Notes under the pieces: model-generated
What the model was told of the DNA's origin: nothing
What the model saw: only the letters and a program-made list of their open reading frames with translations
Database searches by the model: none
Shown: in pieces, positions 2,498 to 29,263 of the stretch
Layout of the letters: each line of letters opens with the position of its first letter
Position numbering within the stretch: the stretch's first letter is position 1
Made by a program: the position numbers and the translations under genes
NCBI GenBank assembly: GCA_041662965.1
Contig: JBAZRI010000003.1
Span: forward strand, 1,331-65,330
Direction: 5' to 3'
DNA from: Patescibacteria group bacterium
GTDB lineage: Bacteria; Patescibacteriota; Patescibacteriia; Patescibacteriales; GWC2-42-12
DNA length: 64,000 nucleotides

Positions 2498-3763
2498 TTA
2501 CGGTATCAGCGACTTAAACCATTCTTTAACTTGCTCCAGCCCTTTACCGGCCGCGCCGCCGGTCGGCCAGCTTATTCTTGAAGTCTTTTTGCGCTTGGTT
2601 AACTGGTTGCCCCAGGCGACGAGTCCTAAGGCGGTCAGATAATTAACATCATTAACTTTATCAATGGCTAAAGAAATATTTTGGTTAGAGCCTAAGCAGG
2701 CGGGCAAACGCAATTTATTTTTCGCCACCTCCACCAAATCATTTAATTTAGCGCCGCCGCCAATTAAGAAAACTCCGGCCGGCAACATCCCGCTACGGTC
2801 TATCTTTTTTAATTCATTGTCAATTTTTTCAAAAATTTCTTCAACCCGGGCTTCAATGATTTCCGCCACGTATTTTTTAGAAATCACCATGCTGTCTTCG
2901 GAAATATTTTCTTCTTTAGCTAGGTCGCTCGCGTCCACTTCGTCTTTTTTCGTAAATTTATCGCTCTTAGCCGAGCCGTATTCAAGCTTAATTCTTTCGG
3001 CTAAATTAATCGGGCACCTTAAGCCGATAGCCACGTCGGCGGTTATATGCTCGGAGCCGATGGGAATAACCGCGGCGTGGAGCAGTTCGCCTTCTTCAAA
3101 AACCGCTAAACTCGTGGTAGACGAGCCGATATTGATTAAAGCCGCGCCCAGCTCTTTTTGCTTGGCGCCGATAACGACTTCGGCCGCGGCCAAAGGCGAT
3201 AAAACCAGATCTTCAATTTCTAAACTGGTGCGGTAAATCGCTTTGGTTAAATTTTTTATCTGGCTGCTTAGCCCCTGAATAATTAAAGTTTCAACTTCCA
3301 GCCTGACGCCGGTCATGCCGATCGGATCTTTTATGTCTGCCTGGTTATCCACGGAAAATTTAACCGGTATGACATGAAGGATTTCATAATTCGGCGGCAC
3401 GGATAAAGCCTGGGCGGCTTCCACCGCCCGGTTAACGTCATCCTCGGTTATTTCATTATCGCTCCGGCCGACCGCGACCACGCCCTGGCTTTTTTCGCAT
3501 TTTAAATTCGGGCCGTTTATGCCTACCCAGACATTGGTAACCGGCACGCCGATTAATCTTTCGGCTTTTTCCAGGCAGGACGAAATCGCCGAAGTCGCGT
3601 CTTCAATGCTGTTAACCGCGCCCCGGTTTATGCCTTGGGCCGACACGGTAACCGCGCCTAAAATTTGCAATTGTTCGCCTGACTCATTGGCCTTTCTTTG
3701 GCCGACTACCAGCCTGACTGACGTTGAGCCGATATCCAAGCCGGCAATAATATTTTCTTTCAT
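2498..3763 (-). CDS. ftsA: cell division protein FtsA
   Basis: 421 aa actin-fold ATPase with motifs DIGSTSVRLVVG, INIGSSTTSLAVF and LIGGGAKL. It is upstream of ftsZ. Confidence 0.93.
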   Translation of the reverse strand: MKENIIAGLDIGSTSVRLVVGQRKANESGEQLQILGAVTVSAQGINRGAVNSIEDATSAISSCLEKAERLIGVPVTNVWVGINGPNLKCEKSQGVVAVGRSDNEITEDDVNRAVEAAQALSVPPNYEILHVIPVKFSVDNQADIKDPIGMTGVRLEVETLIIQGLSSQIKNLTKAIYRTSLEIEDLVLSPLAAAEVVIGAKQKELGAALINIGSSTTSLAVFEEGELLHAAVIPIGSEHITADVAIGLRCPINLAERIKLEYGSAKSDKFTKKDEVDASDLAKEENISEDSMVISKKYVAEIIEARVEEIFEKIDNELKKIDRSGMLPAGVFLIGGGAKLNDLVEVAKNKLRLPACLGSNQNISLAIDKVNDVNYLTALGLVAWGNQLTKRKKTSRISWPTGGAAGKGLEQVKEWFKSLIP

Positions 3764-4334: not shown

Positions 4335-4926
4335 TCTCTTTCAGAAATAACAAAAAATTATCAATAAATGATACATACGAATCCGTATCATAAACTATAA
4401 CAACTTCTTTGATGGCATAACCGGAGATAATCTTTTGAATATCCCGCGTTTCTTCCTCGCTTTGGCAAAATTTTCCTTTAGAGAGCGGGGTATAATCATA
4501 AGGCCCCGGACTTGGGTTTTGCCAATTGCTCGTGCAAAAATTATCAACAATCACCACGCCGTTATTGTTAGAGATGGCATTCATGAATACTTCTTGATTA
4601 ACTTCGCCTGCTTTAACCGAACTTTTCTCTTTAAATATGGATGGCACGATTATTACGGAATTATTGCCATTAAACGTCTTGCCGACAACTCCGTTTAGAA
4701 CCTTATAAGTGTTAAAATTCAAACCGTTTAAATCGCCTAAAATCAACTTAAAATCACTTTTACCGTTTTTGGCAAAGTAGGAGAAGCTTAATTTTTGCTC
4801 CGTGAATTTAGAACTGATAGCTGAATTAAAATCACTTTGCTTATTTTTCGCGATAACAAACACCAAGGCTAAAACAATCAGCAGGGCGAAAAAAGCCAGA
4901 TTTAATTTTTTATTCTTTCTTTCCAT
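4273..4926 (-). CDS. hypothetical N-terminally anchored protein
   Basis: 217 aa with one N-terminal TM helix. Its ends overlap both neighbours, consistent with an operon. I recognised no motif. Confidence 0.5.
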   Translation of the reverse strand: MERKNKKLNLAFFALLIVLALVFVIAKNKQSDFNSAISSKFTEQKLSFSYFAKNGKSDFKLILGDLNGLNFNTYKVLNGVVGKTFNGNNSVIIVPSIFKEKSSVKAGEVNQEVFMNAISNNNGVVIVDNFCTSNWQNPSPGPYDYTPLSKGKFCQSEEETRDIQKIISGYAIKEVVIVYDTDSYVSFIDNFLLFLKENGINYKLVKIENEQQIIKEF

Positions 4927-20181: not shown

Positions 20182-20529
20182 CTATAACTTATTATGCTTG
20201 GTATGTTTTCCTTTGGCTTTTTCAATCGGATATCTCCTGGCTGTTTCAATAAGTTTTTTTGGCAAAGCCAAGCTAATATTAATATTTAAATCATGCGACA
20301 TTAGTAAAACCCAATACAAAACATCTGCCAATTCGTCGGCTATTTCATTTTTATTTGTTTTTACATACTTTTCCATTTCTTGCTTATTTTTCCATTGAAA
20401 ATGCTCTAAAACCTCCGCCGCTTCCAACGCTAAAGATATAGCCATGTCTTTTGGATTGTGAAACTGTTTCCAGTCTCTTTCATCGCGAAATTTTATAACC
20501 TTTTTTGTTAACTCATTGATATCAGACAT
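20182..20529 (-). CDS. MazG-like all-alpha NTP pyrophosphohydrolase (DCTPP1/YpjD-like)
   Basis: FRDERDWKQFHNPKDMAISLALEAAEVLEHFQW and ADELADVLYWVLLMSHDLNI fit the MazG-type EExxE/D four-helix pattern. Confidence 0.8.
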   Translation of the reverse strand: MSDINELTKKVIKFRDERDWKQFHNPKDMAISLALEAAEVLEHFQWKNKQEMEKYVKTNKNEIADELADVLYWVLLMSHDLNINISLALPKKLIETARRYPIEKAKGKHTKHNKL

Positions 20530-20636
20530 ATTTTATAACTTATTTAAATTATATCTTATTTATCTTAGATTAAACCAAAATGCTTTTTTATATAATTTTC
20601 AACTTCTTTAATAATTTTTATATTATCAATTATCTA

Positions 20637-21251
20637 TTATCTGTTTAAATCTAGCAAAGCTATTTCAACCGGCGCGGAGCTAACGCCAAAATATTTTGCT
20701 ATCGGTCTGGCTAAATATTGATTAAGAATTTTTGGGTCTATTTCAGTTATTTTAATTTGATCTTCAGAAATAAATTGATTAATCACTTTTTTTCTAATTT
20801 CATATAATTGACCCCGAGGAATTAATAAAAAATTGGCAAAAATATGCGCTTGTGTTTCCATAAAATGGTATTGATCTCCCGGTATTTCATCATAAAACCT
20901 GTTAAAATCATCGGCATCGCTAATTCCAAATTGTTCATATAAATTTTTATGCAACGCCAAATGGCCGATTTCATGGGCATATGAAAATCTTAATCTATTA
21001 TTATTTTTATCTGCTTCAAATAAATCATAATCTACGCAAATCTGTTGCCAAGACGAAGTTATATAAGCATCAATATTAAACAATTTAAATAGGCCTGGCT
21101 TGAATATAATATCCATCCTTAAATTAACACTGATTATTTTTTCTATATCCACCGGAATTATGTCGTTCCAATATTTTTTTCTAAATAGCTCGGCGGCATC
21201 GGAAATTTCTCCCTTGGTTAGAAAGGGCACTTTAACGCTCTGAAAATTCAT
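20637..21251 (-). CDS. ImmA/IrrE-family zinc metallopeptidase
   Basis: HEXXH motif within YAHEIGHLALH. It lies 4 nt downstream of an XRE HTH gene, which is the canonical pairing. Confidence 0.8.
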   Translation of the reverse strand: MNFQSVKVPFLTKGEISDAAELFRKKYWNDIIPVDIEKIISVNLRMDIIFKPGLFKLFNIDAYITSSWQQICVDYDLFEADKNNNRLRFSYAHEIGHLALHKNLYEQFGISDADDFNRFYDEIPGDQYHFMETQAHIFANFLLIPRGQLYEIRKKVINQFISEDQIKITEIDPKILNQYLARPIAKYFGVSSAPVEIALLDLNR

Positions 21252-21255
21252 TTTT

Positions 21256-21636
21256 TTATTTATTATTTTTTATTAGCTTAAATAACGCCTCTATTTCTCG
21301 CTTGGTCGGCTTCTCGTCTCTCATAGTCCGAAAAAACGCCGGCAGAAGTTTAACTGTATCTGCGTCGGAAAGTATATCTTCCGGTATGATGCCTTGAGCG
21401 ATCGCAGCGCAGTCAATAAAATCATTCAGTTCTTTTTTATTTGGTAATAATCCAAATATTTTAGTCCACTTTATGAGAGTATTTTTATCCGAAGGCGGAG
21501 CCATTTTTCCTCTTTCAATTTTACTCCAATTACTAGGATCATAATCGGCTAATTTACATATTTCCCTTAGGCTAAGGTTTTTTTCAATTCTTAAATTTTT
21601 TAACAATTCGCCGAATTTTTGTAGATTTTTTTTCAT
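21256..21636 (-). CDS. XRE-family helix-turn-helix regulator
   Basis: LKNLRIEKNLSLREICKLADYDPSNWSKIERGK, an HTH_3-like motif. Confidence 0.75.
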   Translation of the reverse strand: MKKNLQKFGELLKNLRIEKNLSLREICKLADYDPSNWSKIERGKMAPPSDKNTLIKWTKIFGLLPNKKELNDFIDCAAIAQGIIPEDILSDADTVKLLPAFFRTMRDEKPTKREIEALFKLIKNNK

Positions 21637-21676
21637 TGATTCACCACCTCTCTAGTTTTTTAATTAATATTAAATA

Positions 21677-21715
21677 AGTGTGGTATTATTTTACCACACT
21701 TAAAAATATTGTCAA
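21677..21715 (-). promoter_or_regulatory. promoter plus palindromic operator of the XRE/ImmA pair
   Basis: On the minus strand, TTGACA (21715-21710), a 16 nt spacer, then TAAAAT (21693-21688). A 10 bp inverted repeat AAGTGTGGTA / TACCACACTT (21677-21701) spans the -10 box. GAGAGGTGGTGA precedes the ATG. Confidence 0.55.
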
Positions 21716-21725
21716 ATTGTTTTAC

Positions 21726-22538
21726 TTATTTACCACTTTTAATTTTTCTTACTTTTTCAGCCTTCTTTACCCTGGTATGCGCTTTGCCGATGCCGTCCGG
21801 CGTAGGTAAATTCTCCGGCATAGTGCCGCCCAAACCCTGAATGGTGTTTCTGACTTTTTGGCCGACTTCATAATGGGCCAGATTAGCGCTTGTCTCTCCT
21901 TTAATATTTTCTCGCCTGATTTTAGCGTCGGCCTGCGTGGCGCGAAACAGATTGGCCGCCAACTCTTCACTGCCCATATGGTCAAGAATATGCTGTGTCT
22001 TTTTAAGATTCTTGCGATTATGGATGTCTTGCATGGTAAGGCCGCCGTAAAGCCCTCTGTAGCCGTAATTTTGAAAAATCGCGTAATTTTCTACACCGGC
22101 GATTGAGGCCGCCTGGGTTAAGCTTACATTGTGTTTTTTCATCTGCTCTCGCAAAAATACGCGCTTATTATCCTCAATTAAATTATCCGTCTTTTCCTGC
22201 CGGCGGGTTTGGATGGCAAAATAGGTCTGCCCTTTGGCGACTACGACTTTTGTCGGATCTGAATTTTGCATGACAAGATAACAAGCGTAACGGGAAAGAT
22301 ATATGATTTCCACGGGTTTTTCCGCTCCTGACCCAATCTTAACCATTTCGTTAGCTTCAACGAAATGGTTGTGGATAACCTCACCGCTATTCCCGCAGGC
22401 AATTTTCGCCCTTTCTATAACTCCGAGAAAATTGCGATAATCCGTGTATTCCAGAACTTTAGCTAAGTCGCGCGACGACCAATATCCCTTGCCATTATTA
22501 TCAAGCCGTTTAATATCTTCAAATTGATTTTTACTCAT
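21726..22538 (-). CDS. dinD: DNA-damage-inducible protein D-like (Bro-N type N-terminal domain)
   Basis: 270 aa. I recall close similarity to E. coli DinD over FEDIKR...WSSRDLAKVLEY..YRNF..VIERAK.AC.NSG....HF.E...MVKIGSGA...SRYACYLV.QN.DP.K...A.GQTYFAIQTRRQE. Confidence 0.8.
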   Translation of the reverse strand: MSKNQFEDIKRLDNNGKGYWSSRDLAKVLEYTDYRNFLGVIERAKIACGNSGEVIHNHFVEANEMVKIGSGAEKPVEIIYLSRYACYLVMQNSDPTKVVVAKGQTYFAIQTRRQEKTDNLIEDNKRVFLREQMKKHNVSLTQAASIAGVENYAIFQNYGYRGLYGGLTMQDIHNRKNLKKTQHILDHMGSEELAANLFRATQADAKIRRENIKGETSANLAHYEVGQKVRNTIQGLGGTMPENLPTPDGIGKAHTRVKKAEKVRKIKSGK

Positions 22539-22569
22539 ATTATTAGTATTTCATTAAAATCTATTTATA

Positions 22570-22598
22570 ATTATATACGAACAAAATACGAAATTCAA
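22570..22598 (-). promoter_or_regulatory. candidate promoter of dinD with direct repeats
   Basis: On the minus strand, TTGAAT (22598-22593), 17 nt, then TATAAT (22575-22570). The spacer holds two TTCGTAT direct repeats (22592-22586 and 22581-22575). Confidence 0.45.
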
Positions 22599-22602
22599 TA
22601 AT

Positions 22603-24096
22603 TTAAATATTATTCTTAACCAAAAAATCTTTTAAAACCATAGTGGCCTTGCAATCATCTTCATTATATTCCAAAATTCTTTTTAATATTTTTTCATCTT
22701 TGGTTTTTAAATATTCATTATACCATTGTATTGATAAAGCGCCGGAGGGCGTTTCGTCCCGCCATTTGAATCCCAGATAGACGGCAATCTCTTTTATAGA
22801 ATAACTCCCTAGTGGCCAATCGGTGTGCTTATAAATTATATCCATATATAAATCAATAGTCTTCTCCCGCGCGAAAAAGTCTTCCAGCTCGTCTTCGCTC
22901 ACGACTTCTGGGTATGTCTGGCGCATTTTTTTATAAACCGTCTTTTCATAAGGCGAATAATAATAAACCGCGAAGTCATCTTTCGGTAAAGTTCTGATGT
23001 AATCCCAAAATTTTTGCCAGGCAATTTTTTCACCTTCTGCCGTATTGCTTTCGGCTACGAAGCTTAAAAACCTTTCTTTACCGTTTTTTCTTTCATACAC
23101 GCCGTGAAGATAGACTAAATTTTGCGTCGGGTCGGCTTCAATATCAAAAAATAATTCCGTGGAAACTTCGGGCAAATTAAGATGCTCATAAATAACCGGT
23201 TTTTTAGTATTGGCAACGATATTGGCTCGAATAATTATTTTTTCAATTGTTTTCTCGCCCACGCCCGGTAAAAACTTTTTATTAGCCTTTTTCCGCGCCG
23301 CGATAACCGCGATATCTAATTGTGCGATATCTTTTACGCTATTAACCCCTAGCTGTTCAACAATAACATCTCGCTTGCTTCGTCCCAAATAAAATATATT
23401 GGTTAAGTCGTCACTTTCCTTACACCACTTTTTACAGCTTAAATACCAAGGGCACAATTTGCAAATAGCCGAACTGGCCGGTAAATTCTGCTTTTTATTC
23501 TTTATTAGCGCATCCGCCTCTTCTTTTATTTCTTCATACGCTTCCCACCAAGTCTCGGGACTGCGAACACCCATCTTATCATCTAATTTATATTCCGCTT
23601 CTTTTTCGTTTATATCAATAATCAAACCTATATTGTTTTTGGCAAATCCTTTTTCTTTTAATAATCCAGCGTAAACGCATAATTGCACGGCGTAATGCTT
23701 TTTTAGCCTGCCTTCGCCATCTTCGCTCTCCCCCTCATAGCCCAATCCAGCCTTAATATCAATTGGCAAATAATTACCATCGGATTGTTTTCTTAATAAG
23801 TCTGGTATGCCCATTAAATTCTCGCCTTTTAAAACTCCCTGATATATTAATTCATCACCGCGCTTCATAGCTTCCATAGCTAAATCAGCGGCCCGATCAA
23901 ATCCAATTTTACTTAAATCCGTAAACCCACCCAGCTTGCTGACCACTTTCTTTTCATGCTGGACGCCCCGATCCCAAAGCAATTGAACGAACGGATTAGT
24001 TTCTTTAATTTTCTCCTCTTGCGGACCCCAAACATCCCGCCACACCCGATGTGGACATTGGAGATAATTATATAGCTTTGAAGCGGTTATGGACAT
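22603..24096 (-). CDS. Cas4/RecB-like PD-(D/E)xK nuclease with a C-terminal RNase H-like domain (TM0106-type)
   Basis: N-terminal Cys (YLQCPHR), PIDIKAG (D-x-K), QLCVY (QxxxY), and a CKLCPWYLSC Cys cluster typical of Cas4-type Fe-S nucleases. The C-terminus has FFDIEADP...YLHGV...YNEDDC, an RNase H-like exonuclease fold. Confidence 0.8.
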   Translation of the reverse strand: MSITASKLYNYLQCPHRVWRDVWGPQEEKIKETNPFVQLLWDRGVQHEKKVVSKLGGFTDLSKIGFDRAADLAMEAMKRGDELIYQGVLKGENLMGIPDLLRKQSDGNYLPIDIKAGLGYEGESEDGEGRLKKHYAVQLCVYAGLLKEKGFAKNNIGLIIDINEKEAEYKLDDKMGVRSPETWWEAYEEIKEEADALIKNKKQNLPASSAICKLCPWYLSCKKWCKESDDLTNIFYLGRSKRDVIVEQLGVNSVKDIAQLDIAVIAARKKANKKFLPGVGEKTIEKIIIRANIVANTKKPVIYEHLNLPEVSTELFFDIEADPTQNLVYLHGVYERKNGKERFLSFVAESNTAEGEKIAWQKFWDYIRTLPKDDFAVYYYSPYEKTVYKKMRQTYPEVVSEDELEDFFAREKTIDLYMDIIYKHTDWPLGSYSIKEIAVYLGFKWRDETPSGALSIQWYNEYLKTKDEKILKRILEYNEDDCKATMVLKDFLVKNNI

Positions 24097-24110: not shown

Positions 24111-24452
24111 TTAGATAATTCCAAAGTGTTTCTTAAGATAACTTTCGACTTCTTTAATAATTTTTATATTTACCTCCCCTATTTTATGAATAAACCTTAA
24201 TTTATCATAGCTAATTATGTGATGTACTTTTATAATTGAATCTTCATATAATCTATTGCTAACGTCTTTTTTGATAAAAATATCATCTCTATGACGATTA
24301 CCGGAAGAAGATAACGGCATAATCGTAACTAAATTAACGGCGGTAATTAAATTATTAGCCATAATAATAAGCGCCGGACGGTCGTTATAATATTCGTGCC
24401 CAACGCTTTTTTCTTCGGCCAATTTAATCAACCAGATTTCCCCCTTTTTCAT
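24111..24452 (-). CDS. MazF/PemK-family endoribonuclease toxin
   Basis: 113 aa. KKGEIWLIKL...DRPALIIMAN...VTIMPLSS matches the PemK/MazF pattern (GdIw...RPvlVvs...vvPlTs). Confidence 0.8.
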   Translation of the reverse strand: MKKGEIWLIKLAEEKSVGHEYYNDRPALIIMANNLITAVNLVTIMPLSSSGNRHRDDIFIKKDVSNRLYEDSIIKVHHIISYDKLRFIHKIGEVNIKIIKEVESYLKKHFGII

Positions 24453-24454
24453 AT

Positions 24455-25189
24455 TTACTTAAGATTTTTATAATAATTAGCTGCCGCTTCCGAAATTGAA
24501 CCTAAAGCTTTAAGCGCGTCGCGGCCGGCGGCATCCTGCATGTCTTCAAACGAAGAAGTTTTAATTACATTTTTTATTAAACCATTAATCATATAATTAT
24601 CGTCAGCATGAATATAAATTGGTTTAAAATTTTCCGATGATTCGGAAACCAGCGCGATTTGATCCTCCCTTTTATCCCAAAAAAACTTTTTAATATTGGC
24701 ACATCCTTCAATAACCGATAGCACATAGTCGCCATTACGGGGATTTTTATTATCAGGATCAACTAAAACATAATCGCCATCTTCTATTGTCTGTACCCCA
24801 TTAACTTTGGCGCGGTTCATTGACGGCCCTTGAGCGCGTACTGCGAAAATATTTTTTACCTTGCCGATTAAGCGCCGCGATATTCTCAAATAGCCTTCTA
24901 AATTTTCCTCGGCAATAATTTTAGCTTCGCCGCAATCGGCTCCGCCGTAAATCGGCACGGCCACGATCTCGCTAACGCCCTGTTTTATTTCCGAATTAAT
25001 TAATCGCGCTTCACCGGTTTTTTTATCTATTTCAATAAATCCCTTTTTCTCTAATTGGCTTAAATGATGGCTGATTTTTTGCGGATGGCTTTCGTCAACC
25101 AATAAGCCAATATCTCTAAGGCTCATTTTTTCCATATTAATCTTAGAAACGATTTTTAATAGTTTTTCTTGTATGGGATGCAAATGCAT
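24455..25189 (-). CDS. LexA-like repressor (winged HTH + S24 peptidase) with a C-terminal extension
   Basis: N-terminus is LexA-type wHTH (MSLRDIG...ISHHLSQLEKKGFIE). S24 motifs are VPIYGGADCGE (cleavage-loop region), GPSM (Ser) and ANIKKF (Lys). About 45 aa follow the S24 fold. Confidence 0.8.
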   Translation of the reverse strand: MHLHPIQEKLLKIVSKINMEKMSLRDIGLLVDESHPQKISHHLSQLEKKGFIEIDKKTGEARLINSEIKQGVSEIVAVPIYGGADCGEAKIIAEENLEGYLRISRRLIGKVKNIFAVRAQGPSMNRAKVNGVQTIEDGDYVLVDPDNKNPRNGDYVLSVIEGCANIKKFFWDKREDQIALVSESSENFKPIYIHADDNYMINGLIKNVIKTSSFEDMQDAAGRDALKALGSISEAAANYYKNLK

Positions 25190-25219: not shown

Positions 25220-25248
25220 ATTATAGACTAAGAACAATGTTTTGTCAA
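25220..25248 (-). promoter_or_regulatory. consensus sigma70-type promoter of the lexA-like operon
   Basis: On the minus strand, TTGACA (25248-25243), 17 nt, then TATAAT (25225-25220). The spacer contains the small palindrome AACA-T-TGTT. Confidence 0.65.
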
Positions 25249-25275
25249 GTTTTTTATAATTACTCGTCAAGTCTC

Positions 25276-25304
25276 TTGACGGCTATTTCTATTTTTGCTA
25301 AAAT
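25276..25304 (+). promoter_or_regulatory. divergent promoter toward the DUF2188 gene
   Basis: TTGACG (25276-25281), 17 nt, then TAAAAT (25299-25304). The -35 box overlaps the GTCAAG-N3-CTTGAC palindrome at 25266-25280. The leader is about 140 nt and has two hairpins. Confidence 0.55.
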
Positions 25305-25693: not shown

Positions 25694-25705
25694 TAATCAT
25701 CAAAA

Positions 25706-25735
25706 ACAGGAAGCTCAAAGCTTCCTGTTTTTATT
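25706..25735. terminator. bidirectional terminator between the DUF2188 gene and the HEPN-like gene
   Basis: 9 bp stem ACAGGAAGC / GCTTCCTGT with a 5 nt loop, flanked by A5 upstream and T-runs downstream. Confidence 0.7.
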
Positions 25736-26477
25736 TTCCCTCTACCGCCCTTATCTCCTCCTCCCCCAGTCCATACAACTCATTAATTTCTTTTAATCGA
25801 TAAACTTCAAATCTTTTCAAATAATCTACAACCATTTTTGTTTTATCTTTAGTATCTATCTTCGCATTATCATATATTATATTAGTAGAAATTAATTTCG
25901 ATAAAAACATATCTATTATCTTTTCAATAATATTAAAAAGTTTCCTAATTTCCTCGCCGGTTATATTTATTTCATCTTTTTTTATATCATCGTGAGCGAG
26001 ATATTGATCGCGATAAGTTTTTAGTCGTTTAATAATTTCCTTATTTTTCTCAATGTCAGATTGGATTGCTAATATATCTTCATATTTTACGCCCTTATAT
26101 TCTCTAATAAGCATAGCGATAAAATTTGGATCTTGCCCTTGGCTATATTCTGCGAAGTCACTTACAGATAATTTGGCTATATTACTTTGCGTATAGTTAA
26201 TTATCTTCGTAACATGGAGTGAATTATCGGCAATATCAAAAAACTTAGCAAGCTCTAAAAAGAAATAAACACGCAGAGCTTCTTTTAAAGGGAGAAAAAA
26301 ACTACTAAAATCTTTTTCTATAATCTTCTTATTCTTTTCCAATGTGTCTTGCTCAACTGCACTGGGATCAACTAATTCAATAAGTGTTTCAAATATATGA
26401 AAAGCGGAGAGTGCCTTAAAATAACGACCCTCTATATTTTTTATATATGAAATTATCGTGTTAAATTCTTGACTCAT
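25731..26477 (-). CDS. HEPN-like protein (Rx5H motif), possibly AbiU2-like
   Basis: 248 aa, predicted all-helical by composition. Single R-DQYLA-H motif (YRDQYLAHDD). Its ATG overlaps the stop of the upstream R-M gene (TAATG). Confidence 0.5.
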   Translation of the reverse strand: MSQEFNTIISYIKNIEGRYFKALSAFHIFETLIELVDPSAVEQDTLEKNKKIIEKDFSSFFLPLKEALRVYFFLELAKFFDIADNSLHVTKIINYTQSNIAKLSVSDFAEYSQGQDPNFIAMLIREYKGVKYEDILAIQSDIEKNKEIIKRLKTYRDQYLAHDDIKKDEINITGEEIRKLFNIIEKIIDMFLSKLISTNIIYDNAKIDTKDKTKMVVDYLKRFEVYRLKEINELYGLGEEEIRAVEGK

Positions 26478-29173
26478 TATTTTTTAATAATATTAATCTC
26501 CTCTCCCGTCAACCCATACAGCTCATAAACTTTTTTATCAATTTCTTTATCCGTCTTTTCAATTTCTTCTTTTACCCCATTATATTCTTTATCGTCCATA
26601 ATCGGGTCTAATTTTTGCAGTTCTTTATTTTTTTCCAACATTTTGTCAACTAATTTCACTAATTCATCGTGTTTGGCTTTTTCATTTTTTTTCTTAAAAT
26701 CTATCTTATAAATCGGTATTTCTTTTAAATGATTTATCTTAATTTCTGCGAATAATTTTCCTTTGCGCGGTTGTATGGCTAAAAAATACCATGTACCTAA
26801 TAAAGAATTTAAAATTGCTAAAACATATTTCAAGCTAATCTGATTTTCTAAATTTTTATATAAAACGAAAAAATTATTGCTCGCATAAAAGTTTTCTTCG
26901 TCAATCGAAGCTATAATTCTATCTCCAGTTCTTCTCACTAATATTTTTTTATTAACAAAATATTCCTCTCTGCCCAAATTAGCATACTCCTTTTTATCTC
27001 TATCAATTATTTTTTTATCATATATGACATATTTACCCGCCCATTTTTTTGAATATCTATTAATTTCATTCCCTTTAAATAATAACTTCTTACAAAGTTC
27101 TGAGCTTGAAGAATCAATAAATAATTTTTTTCTTACATTACCAGAATGGATTCCTTCGTGTATCTCAAAATTTTTTCCTAAATTTGCAGAAACATCGTCT
27201 AGTTTTTGTTTTAATTTTAATATATTATCATCAAAATATAAGTTAAATTTATTATCTTTATTTTCTAAAAATATAATCTGTTTAATTTTTTTATTTTCAC
27301 TATTAACTATAACATTCATTAAATTGCTATCTCTTTTTATTTTGACTTTTTCTTTTCTTAAAATCATTACTACGGAATCTAAGTTTACCCCCGCGAAAGC
27401 CATTCCAGTATAATAAATATTGGTTATAATAAAATTATCTAAAATTATCTTTCTAATCAATGGATAATTTTTTAACAAAATAATATCAGGCAATATAAGC
27501 CCTAAAAAACCATCTTCTTTTAATAAATTAAAAGACTTCTCTATGAATAAAGCAAAGGTATCTACGATGCCACTACCTGCTATAAAATATTCTTTATAAT
27601 AATCCTTTTCTTCTTTAATAATTTCTGCACCCCATGGCGGATTACCGATTATCACGTCAAAACCTCCTTGTTTAAAAACCGGTTCAAATTTTTTCTGCCA
27701 ATTAAACGGCTTTTTTTCTTTATAATTTTCACCGAAATATTTTTTTAATTCCTCTTCTTTGCCCGAAATCAAAGAATTGCCGTTTTCTATATTATGGGCT
27801 AAATTAGGCAAAAGCTCTCTTTGCCCTAAGACTTTTAATAATAAATTCAATTGAGCGATTTCTACGGCTTCCTGATCTAAATCCACGCCATAAATATTTG
27901 AAGTTAAAATACTTACTTTTCTGGCATAATTTTTCATAATATCCGCGTCAAGCTCATTATTTTCTCTTTTAATATGGTTATCTAAAACTTCAAAGGCTTT
28001 AATTAAAAACGAGCCCGAACCGCAAGCCGGATCTAAAATTTTAATTTTCCCTGCCTCAAAACCTGACTTACCTTTTAATAATTCGCCCAAAGTATTTTTT
28101 ACGATGTAATCCACGATATATCTCGGAGTATAATAGATGCCCTGTGATTTTCTTTTGCCTGATTTTTTATCTTTTTCTTCCTGCTGAATCTGCCCTAAAT
28201 ATTGCTCATAAATACTGCCTAAAATATCGGCGTTGATAGAAGCGAAATCATAACGGATGCCTTTGGTGTTTTTATATAATTCTTTAATAATTCTTGCCAA
28301 TAGCTCATCTTCATATATAAGCGTATCGCAAATAGCCGGTAAAAATAATTTGCTGTTATAGCCGTCATTATAATCCCTAAATAATTTCTTCATTTCATCA
28401 GCCAAATTTAATTTGCCTTTGCCATCTTCCCAATTTCTAACGATTTCCCTTAACTTTTCGCCTTCAATTTTTCTGTCTTCGGTCGTCCTGATAAAAATCA
28501 GCCTGTCCAAAAGCCTTTGCACGCTCTCGGCAATTTGCTTATCGCTTAATTTTTTATCCCCGTTCCAGCCTTTTAAATCTTTAAACAGCAACGACCGCCA
28601 TTTTACCAAATCATCGGCTAATAATTTATCTACCGCTTCTTTTTTTGGTTTTTTAAAATTGGCTTCCGCGTATTTGTCTAAATCGCCTTTTAGCATTGAC
28701 TCTTTAGACAACCACCAAAGCTTTTCGTCTTTTAAATAATCTTTATAATTTATTTCAAAAATCAAGCTTCTCTCCGCGTCCGACTCGTCCCATTCGGCGT
28801 TATAAACTTTTATACCTTCAAAATCAGTTAAAATCGCCCAAGGCACGCTTTTATGCCAGGCATAAGAAATGGCTTGCTCGCCATGCTTAGCTTCCCTTAA
28901 ATCCACGCTTGGTTTTTTAGCCTCAACAAAAAATTTAATGACGTCATTAACATGAAAGGCGTAATCGGCGCGCCCGCCGGAAACCTGCGTTTCCGAAGTA
29001 ACTTCATGATTGGATATATTATTATAAACATCCCAGCCCAAAGCCTGAAATAAAGGCAAAATAAAATCCTTACAAGTCATTGACTCGTTTTTCTTCTTAA
29101 ATTCAGCCTCGGTTAAGGCGGTGAATTTATTTACCAGCCGCTCAATTTGTTTTTTAGCTTCTTGTTTATTCAT
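26477..29173 (-). CDS. Type IIG restriction-modification enzyme (fused PD-(D/E)xK nuclease and N6-adenine methyltransferase)
   Basis: N-terminus GRADYAF...FFVEAKKP (D...ExK). SAM motif I is ILDPACGSGSFL and motif IV is IIGNPPWG. A long C-terminal region is a putative target-recognition domain. Confidence 0.85.
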   Translation of the reverse strand: MNKQEAKKQIERLVNKFTALTEAEFKKKNESMTCKDFILPLFQALGWDVYNNISNHEVTSETQVSGGRADYAFHVNDVIKFFVEAKKPSVDLREAKHGEQAISYAWHKSVPWAILTDFEGIKVYNAEWDESDAERSLIFEINYKDYLKDEKLWWLSKESMLKGDLDKYAEANFKKPKKEAVDKLLADDLVKWRSLLFKDLKGWNGDKKLSDKQIAESVQRLLDRLIFIRTTEDRKIEGEKLREIVRNWEDGKGKLNLADEMKKLFRDYNDGYNSKLFLPAICDTLIYEDELLARIIKELYKNTKGIRYDFASINADILGSIYEQYLGQIQQEEKDKKSGKRKSQGIYYTPRYIVDYIVKNTLGELLKGKSGFEAGKIKILDPACGSGSFLIKAFEVLDNHIKRENNELDADIMKNYARKVSILTSNIYGVDLDQEAVEIAQLNLLLKVLGQRELLPNLAHNIENGNSLISGKEEELKKYFGENYKEKKPFNWQKKFEPVFKQGGFDVIIGNPPWGAEIIKEEKDYYKEYFIAGSGIVDTFALFIEKSFNLLKEDGFLGLILPDIILLKNYPLIRKIILDNFIITNIYYTGMAFAGVNLDSVVMILRKEKVKIKRDSNLMNVIVNSENKKIKQIIFLENKDNKFNLYFDDNILKLKQKLDDVSANLGKNFEIHEGIHSGNVRKKLFIDSSSSELCKKLLFKGNEINRYSKKWAGKYVIYDKKIIDRDKKEYANLGREEYFVNKKILVRRTGDRIIASIDEENFYASNNFFVLYKNLENQISLKYVLAILNSLLGTWYFLAIQPRKGKLFAEIKINHLKEIPIYKIDFKKKNEKAKHDELVKLVDKMLEKNKELQKLDPIMDDKEYNGVKEEIEKTDKEIDKKVYELYGLTGEEINIIKK

Positions 29174-29179
29174 GTTTTT

Positions 29180-29208
29180 ACTCTATCATTTCTCCGCTAA
29201 TATTTCAA
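29180..29208 (-). promoter_or_regulatory. promoter of the R-M gene; geometry implies a near-leaderless mRNA
   Basis: On the minus strand, TTGAAA (29208-29203), 17 nt, then TAGAGT (29185-29180). Only 6 nt separate the -10 box from the ATG at 29173. Confidence 0.55.
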
Positions 29209-29222
29209 CTTTGTTAAAATAC

Positions 29223-29251
29223 AAAAACACCGCGGCTAAAGCGGTGTTTTT
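29223..29251. terminator. bidirectional terminator downstream of 29264..29692
   Basis: Hairpin CACCGC-GGCTAAA-GCGGTG flanked by A5 and T5. Confidence 0.65.
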
Positions 29252-29263
29252 ATGCGGAATTAA

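Follow-up and report, generated by a model that had tools for sequence, protein, structure and literature searches.

What is a gene for a predicted HEPN ribonuclease (RNase) doing inside the stop codon of a restriction enzyme gene, and is it joined to that enzyme in function or only in position? The question is raised by a two-gene operon in a genome of the Patescibacteria group (NCBI GenBank assembly GCA_041662965.1, contig JBAZRI010000003.1, positions 1,331 to 65,330 of the forward strand; this stretch of 64,000 nucleotides [nt] is hereafter the window, and coordinates refer to it unless a related locus is named). The first gene encodes a predicted Type IIG restriction-methylase of 898 amino acids (aa) and the second a 248-aa protein of the AbiU2 family of HEPN domains. 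Our comparisons point to a HEPN gene that takes the end of a preceding Type IIG gene along with it. As to function, we tentatively favor, at a shade below an even chance, a two-layer defense in which restriction would be backed by a latent HEPN RNase acting as an abortive-infection effector. The elements of the operon are as follows.

29221 to 29253, minus strand: intrinsic terminator (13-bp hairpin and U-run) of the upstream gene for a 142-aa membrane protein, forming the 5' boundary of the operon
29180 to 29208, minus strand: promoter found by scan and by conservation, with TTGAAA (29208-29203), a 17-nt spacer ending in TGa, and TAGAGT (29185-29180)
26477 to 29173, minus strand: open reading frame (ORF) of 898 aa, the restriction enzyme
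26475 to 26479, minus strand: TAATG stop/start overlap of 1 nt joining the enzyme gene and the HEPN gene
25731 to 26477, minus strand: ORF of 248 aa, the AbiU2-family HEPN protein, all-helical, predicted RNase
25701 to 25733, both strands: bidirectional intrinsic terminator (15-bp hairpin) at the operon end, common to the convergent DUF2188 gene

Organization of the operon

The unit is thus predicted to run in the order promoter, 898-aa gene, 248-aa gene, terminator over about 3.5 kb, its transcript limits being defined by the single promoter and by the terminators on both sides; the terminator scan found none between the two ORFs. The upstream terminator has a folding energy of -17.3 kcal/mol (z = -4.7), a stability equaled in 0 of 200 shuffles, and the one at the end of the operon reaches -19.1 kcal/mol (z = -5.5). 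On the minus strand the junction reads ...AAAAAATAATGAGT..., in which the TAA of the enzyme gene (26479-26477) and the ATG of the HEPN gene (26477-26475) have one base in common; both the ORF coordinates and this reading bear out the overlap noticed in an initial annotation made from the letters of the window. No Shine-Dalgarno sequence lies ahead of the HEPN start and, because this start also falls inside the stop codon of the enzyme gene, the most likely source of the HEPN protein is reinitiation by ribosomes that have just terminated on the enzyme gene. We rejected the absence of a Shine-Dalgarno sequence as a special trait of the operon, as it is the genome-wide pattern: such a motif lies 5-17 nt before the start in just 3 of the 51 window ORFs of at least 100 aa, and translation in this organism seems to begin largely without Shine-Dalgarno pairing.

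Assignment of the 248-aa protein to the AbiU2 HEPN family

The initial annotation had called the downstream product HEPN-like on the strength of a single Rx5H motif, at the following position.

25992 to 26012, minus strand: RDQYLAH (R156-x5-H162, aa 156-162), predicted HEPN active-site motif and the sole Rx4-6H in the protein

By itself this is weak evidence, an Rx4-6H pattern being present in 28% of shuffles of the protein; it counts because it is conserved across homologs. In an alignment of 31 homologs R156 and H162 are invariant, likewise R18, N49, E66, R69, Y71, E75, and K78, and across 46 diverse homologs, down to 19% identity, the only invariant columns are R156 and H162. At the level of profiles, the protein matches PF18734 (HEPN_AbiU2) with 34.9 bits against a cut-off of 26.8, over profile positions 28-182 of 193. 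The same family is matched by 45 of the 46 diverse homologs (best 1.2e-23), the next commonest being HEPN_Apea, another HEPN family, with three members (best E-value, 1.4e-4). A homolog search with the protein returned 143 proteins, with PF18734 precomputed on all 120 that were listed; the named homologs among those listed come from Patescibacteria, and GenBank holds an identical 248-aa protein as a hypothetical protein of a Patescibacteria metagenome-assembled genome. A profile search of 1.84 billion representatives gathered 529 family members, nearly all of them stand-alone proteins of 200-260 aa. Both the similarity to HEPN profiles and the conservation of the Rx5H residues, on which the earlier suggestion had been staked, were therefore found, the first by the Pfam profile and the second in the homolog alignments. 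As a profile-level statement, the assignment to the AbiU2 branch of the HEPN superfamily is solid. No NCBIfam model matches the protein. An AlphaFold2 model is confident, with a predicted local distance difference test (pLDDT) score of 85.8, and all-alpha; we infer the HEPN fold from sequence profiles alone, and the protein is a predicted RNase.

Among its wider relatives there are candidate rare fusions of the AbiU2-like domain (among P0147, P0260, P0250, P0107, and P0211), of the types SET-AbiU2, NUDIX-AbiU2, AbiU2-ASCH, and AbiU2 linked to the C-terminal portion of an EcoRI-type methylase; a further candidate is a 491-aa protein whose N-terminal half is without assignment. The ASCH domain fused to one of these relatives we take to be an RNA-binding domain.

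A mosaic Type IIG enzyme

The product of the upstream gene is, by its domains and motifs, an intact Type IIG restriction-methylase in a single polypeptide, as the initial annotation had proposed. Its domains follow each other as an N-terminal PD-(D/E)XK nuclease, a gamma-class N6-adenine methyltransferase, and a TaqI_C specificity domain. PADLOC recognizes it as REase_MTase_IIG (3e-112, residues 1-674), and Pfam places HSDR_N at aa 58-130, Eco57I (8e-32) and N6_Mtase (4e-26) at aa 315-635, and TaqI_C (1e-25) at aa 698-821. The closest sequence matches in the PDB are BREX PglX/BrxX and TaqI methylase domains, with no close solved structure. The features that define the enzyme are listed here.

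28916 to 28966, minus strand: nuclease catalytic motif D70 ... E84-A-K86, supported by conservation in homologs
28013 to 28033, minus strand: methyltransferase motif I, DPACGSG, S-adenosylmethionine (AdoMet) binding, inside the N6_Mtase/Eco57I match
27632 to 27643, minus strand: methyltransferase motif IV, NPPW, catalytic, present
26624 to 27616, minus strand: swapped specificity (target recognition domain, TRD) cassette, aa ~520-850, marked by a drop in identity and the lowest regional GC content

The residues D70, E84, and K86 are invariant across five homologs, one of them at only 26% identity, and M1 aligns in all five, which fixes the start codon of the enzyme. Against the enzymes of two related loci, L039 and L038, identity is ~90% over aa 1-500, falls to ~20% over aa 520-850, and rises again to 72-84% in the last 48 aa. 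The divergent block has a GC content of 23-29%, that of the N-terminal half being 36-37% and that of the window 40.6%. The enzyme is a mosaic in which a specificity-domain swap is bounded by conserved sequence. Such swapping is a familiar behavior of Type IIG enzymes.

The L038 homolog has an in-frame TAA at codon 288 (about position 4862 of that locus), and this copy appears to be inactivated or mis-assembled. The tblastn match of L041 is identical to that of L038 and is probably the same sequence.

The junction with a Type IIG tail is conserved among close HEPN relatives

The close HEPN clade comprises seven independent contexts at 75% identity or more. Four of these (the window, L047/L048, L049, and L037) have the end of a TaqI_C/Type IIG gene directly upstream of the HEPN gene with the same AAAAATAATG overlap, the one-base junction …AAAAATAATGAG… being identical in all four. 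In two others a different gene lies upstream, a Mrr-type nuclease in L035 and a SLFN-like helicase in L046, yet 45-85 nt of non-coding enzyme-tail relic, encoding …LYGL-x-EEEI…KK and a stop, still precede the HEPN ATG. Only L032, where the HEPN gene follows RecA by 12 nt, has neither tail nor relic. The HEPN proteins of this clade are ~80% identical, as against 30-41% for the C-terminal halves of the adjoining enzymes. A first survey, in which 1 of 31 loci had the pairing, had suggested that it was accidental; for the close clade the junctions and relics reversed that view. In this clade the HEPN gene and the enzyme tail thus behave as a single unit, set behind Type IIG genes that differ in specificity and now and then left stranded elsewhere. 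We picture the HEPN gene as a promoterless accessory cassette, headed by the last ~45-85 nt of a Type IIG gene, that has moved among Type IIG genes of differing specificity domain; its remoter relatives lie at the ends of other restriction-modification (R-M) operons. Two elements of the window illustrate the unit.

26480 to 26623, minus strand: conserved C-terminal tail of the enzyme (…VYELYGLTGEEINIIKK and the stop), coding in L047, L049, and L037 and a relic in L035 and L046
25753 to 25793, minus strand: HEPN gene 3' end (…INELYGLGEEEI), matching 26496-26536 at 76% identity as a direct repeat of 41 nt

The other copy of this repeat is the enzyme tail itself (26496-26536), so that the two copies flank the HEPN gene at a spacing of 743 nt. 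L046 has the same repeat at 2571-2605 and 3314-3348, likewise with a spacing of 743 nt. In both loci the repeat is 35-41 nt long with 71-76% identity between copies, both copies encode …ELYGL-x-EEEI, and the 3' end of the HEPN gene thereby carries a second copy of the tail (ELYGLGEEEI), the tail peptide of the window HEPN protein being ELYGLGEEEIRAVEGK. Close HEPN relatives that are without the extended HEPN tail are also without the repeat. Recombination may have left the repeat as its footprint, or the repeat may encode a docking peptide that the two proteins share.

These observations can be drawn together in a broader picture, which we regard as unlikely in its entirety, wherein the AbiU2-like gene would be a specialized hitch-hiker of Type IIG enzymes and the tail would serve as a recombination handle, a coupling platform, and perhaps a docking element. 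As a handle for homologous recombination, the tail could let the cassette hop between enzymes of other specificity with reading frames unbroken; as a platform, it could sustain the stop-start translational coupling. Because the HEPN protein and the enzyme of the window end in the same tail peptide, it might also hold the RNase to the enzyme, so that, by analogy, a bare HEPN domain would achieve masking of the PrrC kind.

Farther afield the pairing is loose

Beyond the close clade we surveyed 31 genome loci with HEPN relatives at 29-60% identity, and a full-length Type IIG homolog lies directly upstream in only one of them, L019. R-M genes are common in these neighborhoods all the same: a DNA methyltransferase motif occurs within ±4 genes of the HEPN gene in 11 of ~28 distinct genome loci, and Pfam identified among 93 neighboring genes AlwI and MjaI nucleases, methylases of the N6_N4, Eco57I, C5, and D12 types, Vsr, and ResIII helicases; other Type II nucleases are also seen near HEPN relatives. 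L017 has a REase_II match directly upstream of the HEPN gene, and in L052 the R-M genes form a dense island. As a rule the HEPN gene is distal in a co-directional cluster and, in at least 13 loci, lies 40 nt or less from the preceding gene. Further loci have the HEPN relative adjoining a serine recombinase, a Fic protein, or a NUDIX protein.

Seen from the side of the enzyme, the position after the stop codon is filled differently in three relatives, where small genes (L038 6739-7422, L039 4117-4791, and L043 6824-7279) overlap or abut the enzyme stop. Pfam has no match for any of these three ORFs; two open with a hydrophobic, putative transmembrane stretch, and one encodes 224 aa with an IIILGAGASRD (GAGAS) motif reminiscent of SIR2-type domains. 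The slot behind the enzyme looks like a variable accessory-gene position, and the comparisons portray the partnership of enzyme and HEPN protein as loose, not obligate.

Effector, passenger, modulator, or addiction module

The two-layer reading has a precedent: taking PrrC as their analogy, Anantharaman et al. (2013) proposed that HEPN RNases form a second layer behind R-M, and their Table 1 gives AbiU2 with the Rx4-6H motif and with 'R-M operons' as its context (PMC3710099). Applied here, it makes of the locus a two-gene defense operon in a Patescibacteria genome, in which the enzyme would methylate its own site and cut unmodified incoming DNA, and the HEPN protein, made by reinitiating ribosomes in proportion to the enzyme, would be a latent RNase that cuts host or phage RNA once an infection passes restriction, the outcome being growth arrest or abortive infection. 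A number of observations weigh against this. Foldseek searches of PDB and BFVD with the AlphaFold2 model gave nothing below E = 0.1 and no HEPN protein in the top 50, the matches being generic helical bundles with E > 0.1; phmmer and profile (hmmsearch) searches of PDB sequences with the 248-aa protein gave no match, and PADLOC is without any model recognizing it. No antitoxin or activating sensor was identified for the protein, and its partners are too varied for specific masking, unless the shared tail mediates it. HEPN relatives at 76-83% identity follow RecA, a Mrr-type nuclease, or a helicase; conversely, what lies downstream of the enzyme relatives at 63-64% and 46% identity is unrelated, with no AbiU2 gene downstream of the enzyme in L038, L039, or L043. 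To our knowledge, neither RNase activity nor toxicity nor a phage phenotype has been reported for any member of this HEPN clade, and we know of no AbiU2-family member demonstrated to be an RNase. Finally, in lactococcal AbiU it is AbiUi alone that gives resistance, and AbiUii, the HEPN component, lowers it (PMC13064643).

Much of this evidence can be turned toward the somewhat unlikely reading that the two genes are neighbors of convenience, the HEPN gene being a self-contained mobile defense or toxin cassette at the 3' ends of R-M and DNA-metabolism genes that borrows transcription and translation and either acts or is selfishly maintained with no functional cross-talk with the Type IIG enzyme. 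The close relatives behind RecA (L032), Mrr (L035), and the SLFN-like helicase (L046) fit such a cassette, as do the recombinase, Fic, and NUDIX neighbors of others, the HEPN identity of ~80% beside enzyme halves at 30-41%, the unrelated small genes that occupy the same slot in enzyme relatives, and the low GC content over the specificity cassette and HEPN gene together. The exact TAATG junction with a Type IIG tail in four of seven contexts, however, and the relics that persist where the enzyme is gone weigh against this; they argue for an ancestral linkage, repeatedly re-created, specifically to Type IIG genes, and the enrichment of R-M neighbors across the family is far above chance for a genome of ~1000 genes. 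A role as modulator instead of effector, in which the AbiU2-like protein would tune or restrain the upstream enzyme or bind RNA uncut, seems to us improbable. Co-expression of AbiUii does reduce AbiUi-mediated resistance (PMC13064643), HEPN domains without the catalytic motif act as non-catalytic RNA binders according to Anantharaman et al. (PMC3710099), and translational coupling would set a fixed ratio of modulator to enzyme. The family-wide invariance of R156 and H162 as sole residues is nonetheless the pattern of a catalytic, not a degenerate, HEPN domain, and partners that include Type IIG enzymes, four classes of separate methylases, Mrr, and RecA are too diverse for one regulatory contact. 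Least probable, and in our view very much so, is an addiction module in which HEPN would be a toxin stabilizing the R-M island with an antitoxin that has escaped recognition. Toxin-antitoxin systems commonly employ HEPN toxins (PMC3710099), a MazF-type module is present in the island as well, and a small DUF2188 gene is convergent to the HEPN gene both in the window and in L047; against this, neither MNT nor any other antitoxin known for HEPN toxins lies next to the gene, most related loci lack DUF2188, and a convergent gene with its own promoter would be an unusual toxin-antitoxin layout.

Relationship to known systems

To the AbiU2/AbiUii family (PF18734) the window protein is alike in its profile match, its Rx4-6H motif, its stand-alone, all-helical form of ~240 aa, and its R-M context. 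It differs in being a distant member (34.9 bits) of a clade almost confined to Patescibacteria, and in that its close clade is joined to Type IIG tails by a 1-nt overlap, a detail not found in PMC3710099. Unlike lactococcal AbiU, the locus has no AbiU1/AbiUi-like partner, the upstream gene being that of the Type IIG enzyme; PADLOC likewise gave no Abi model on the 248-aa protein and no AbiU model among the matches listed for its neighbors. With PrrC-EcoprrI and RloC, the HEPN anticodon nucleases of Type I R-M loci, it has in common a predicted HEPN RNase inside an R-M operon. PrrC and RloC bear an N-terminal ABC-type ATPase domain and are masked by the Type I enzyme, whereas the window protein is a bare HEPN domain whose partner is a single-chain Type IIG enzyme; in Pfam it has the AbiU2 domain only and no ATPase match, which is not the PrrC/RloC architecture. 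PrrC is nevertheless the model for the idea of an RNase back-up for when restriction is defeated (PMC3710099). The enzyme for its part resembles Type IIG enzymes of the Eco57I/MmeI kind in its PD-(D/E)XK nuclease, gamma-class N6A methyltransferase (NPPW), and C-terminal specificity domain, and, as with swappable TaqI_C-type specificity, that region is exchanged between enzymes that are otherwise ~90% identical.

The association of AbiU2 with R-M was already published in 2013, and the window operon is in that sense sound but fairly ordinary and would not surprise a specialist. What may be new lies in the details: a one-base overlap that is conserved at Type IIG tails, relics of those tails, a tail repeat flanking the HEPN gene, and a conserved promoter of leaderless type. 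The operon leaves current concepts unchanged; it adds a compact example from the little-studied Patescibacteria to the proposal of HEPN RNases behind R-M, which after more than a decade is still largely at the stage of a proposal, and its conserved stop-start junction and the tail relics show how such accessory genes pass from one Type IIG enzyme to another. As a unit of ~3.5 kb that includes promoter and terminator, it would also make an easy construct on which to test whether an AbiU2-type HEPN protein is an effector, a role that is in question because the founding AbiUii lowers resistance.

The promoter of the restriction enzyme gene

The geometry proposed in the initial annotation, TTGAAA-17-TAGAGT with 6 nt (aaaaac) between the -10 box and the ATG at 29173, recurs in three related loci. 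The scan additionally marks a TG extended -10 at this site. As 25 promoter-like sites are observed in 6 kb and 27.2 are expected from shuffled sequence, a lone consensus match is not above chance, and the assignment therefore rests on conservation. The enzymes compared for this purpose (L038, L039, and L040) are 63-80% identical to that of the window overall and ~90% in the N-terminal half. The block GTAAAGTTGAAAT…TGnTAnnGT, followed by 6 nt and the ATG, is kept in all three: the -35 hexamer, the TG, and -10 positions 1, 2, 5, and 6 (T1/A2/G5/T6) are unchanged, and the 17-nt spacer length and the 6-nt distance from -10 box to ATG are constant across the four loci including the window. What varies is the spacer sequence, -10 positions 3-4, and the six bases before the ATG. 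In L039 and L040 the homology to the window ends just upstream of the -35 box; in L043, whose enzyme is at 46% identity, the upstream region differs. This pattern of substitution is that expected of a working promoter belonging to the enzyme gene. Given the 6-nt gap, it is a reasonable prediction that transcription starts at or next to the A of the enzyme ATG, which would yield a leaderless or near-leaderless mRNA. Leaderless promoters as a rule of this genome found no support, the best-scoring promoters of the window lying ~30 nt from their ATG.

The surrounding island and neighboring LexA-like modules

The operon lies within a defense/mobile island (about 20-29 kb of the window) that is bordered by a RelA/SpoT gene and by a lipase-like gene and also includes DUF2188 and a LexA-like S24 protein followed by MazF. 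Positions 20182-24096 hold a MazG-like gene, a pair of Xre-type helix-turn-helix (HTH) and M78/ImmA-type peptidase genes, a DinD/Bro-N protein (PADLOC PDC-S13; NCBIfam DinD equivalog), and a fusion of a TM0106-family RecB/Cas4-like nuclease with an RNase H-like domain.

At 24111-25189 on the minus strand, the LexA-like gene lies 2 nt upstream of the MazF/PemK toxin gene, in the position of an antitoxin. Its product joins an HTH to an S24 peptidase, in which the catalytic motifs GPSM and NIKK are present, and has a C-terminal extension of ~35 aa. The same pair follows the enzyme relative of L038 (7900-8996; LexA-like protein 42% and MazF 44% identical), and in L047 (2540-3717) the LexA-like slot holds a protein with an HTH and a SocA/Panacea antitoxin-type domain. 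The arrangement suggests that the LexA-like protein may be a self-cleaving, possibly DNA-damage-triggered, antitoxin of MazF; a literature search on LexA-like/MazF antitoxin arrangements returned nothing directly on the subject. At 25220-25304 the LexA-like gene has a perfect consensus promoter, TTGACA-17-TATAAT, back to back with the divergent DUF2188 promoter, and a perfect palindrome, CGTCAAG-tct-CTTGACG, lies between and across the two and is a likely operator. Regulation of the enzyme by the LexA-like repressor was considered and set aside, as neither the vicinity of the enzyme promoter nor the rest of the window offers another good copy of the palindrome.

A different use of LexA-like domains is seen near AbiU2-like genes in R-M loci, where single proteins at the following positions combine a LexA DNA-binding domain with an S24 peptidase and with a DNA methyltransferase of the N6_N4 or D12 class.

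L003, 6314 to 7903: LexA-S24-methyltransferase fusion
L004, 1049 to 2539: LexA-S24-methyltransferase fusion
L007, 3962 to 5647: LexA-S24-methyltransferase fusion
L052, 7392 to 9254: LexA-S24-methyltransferase fusion

A shared operator was looked for in the intergenic regions between such fusions and the HEPN genes, and no inverted repeat common to them was found. The LexA part of the fusions may be an R-M controller, and in L006 a separate LexA-like gene stands ahead of a large methylase.

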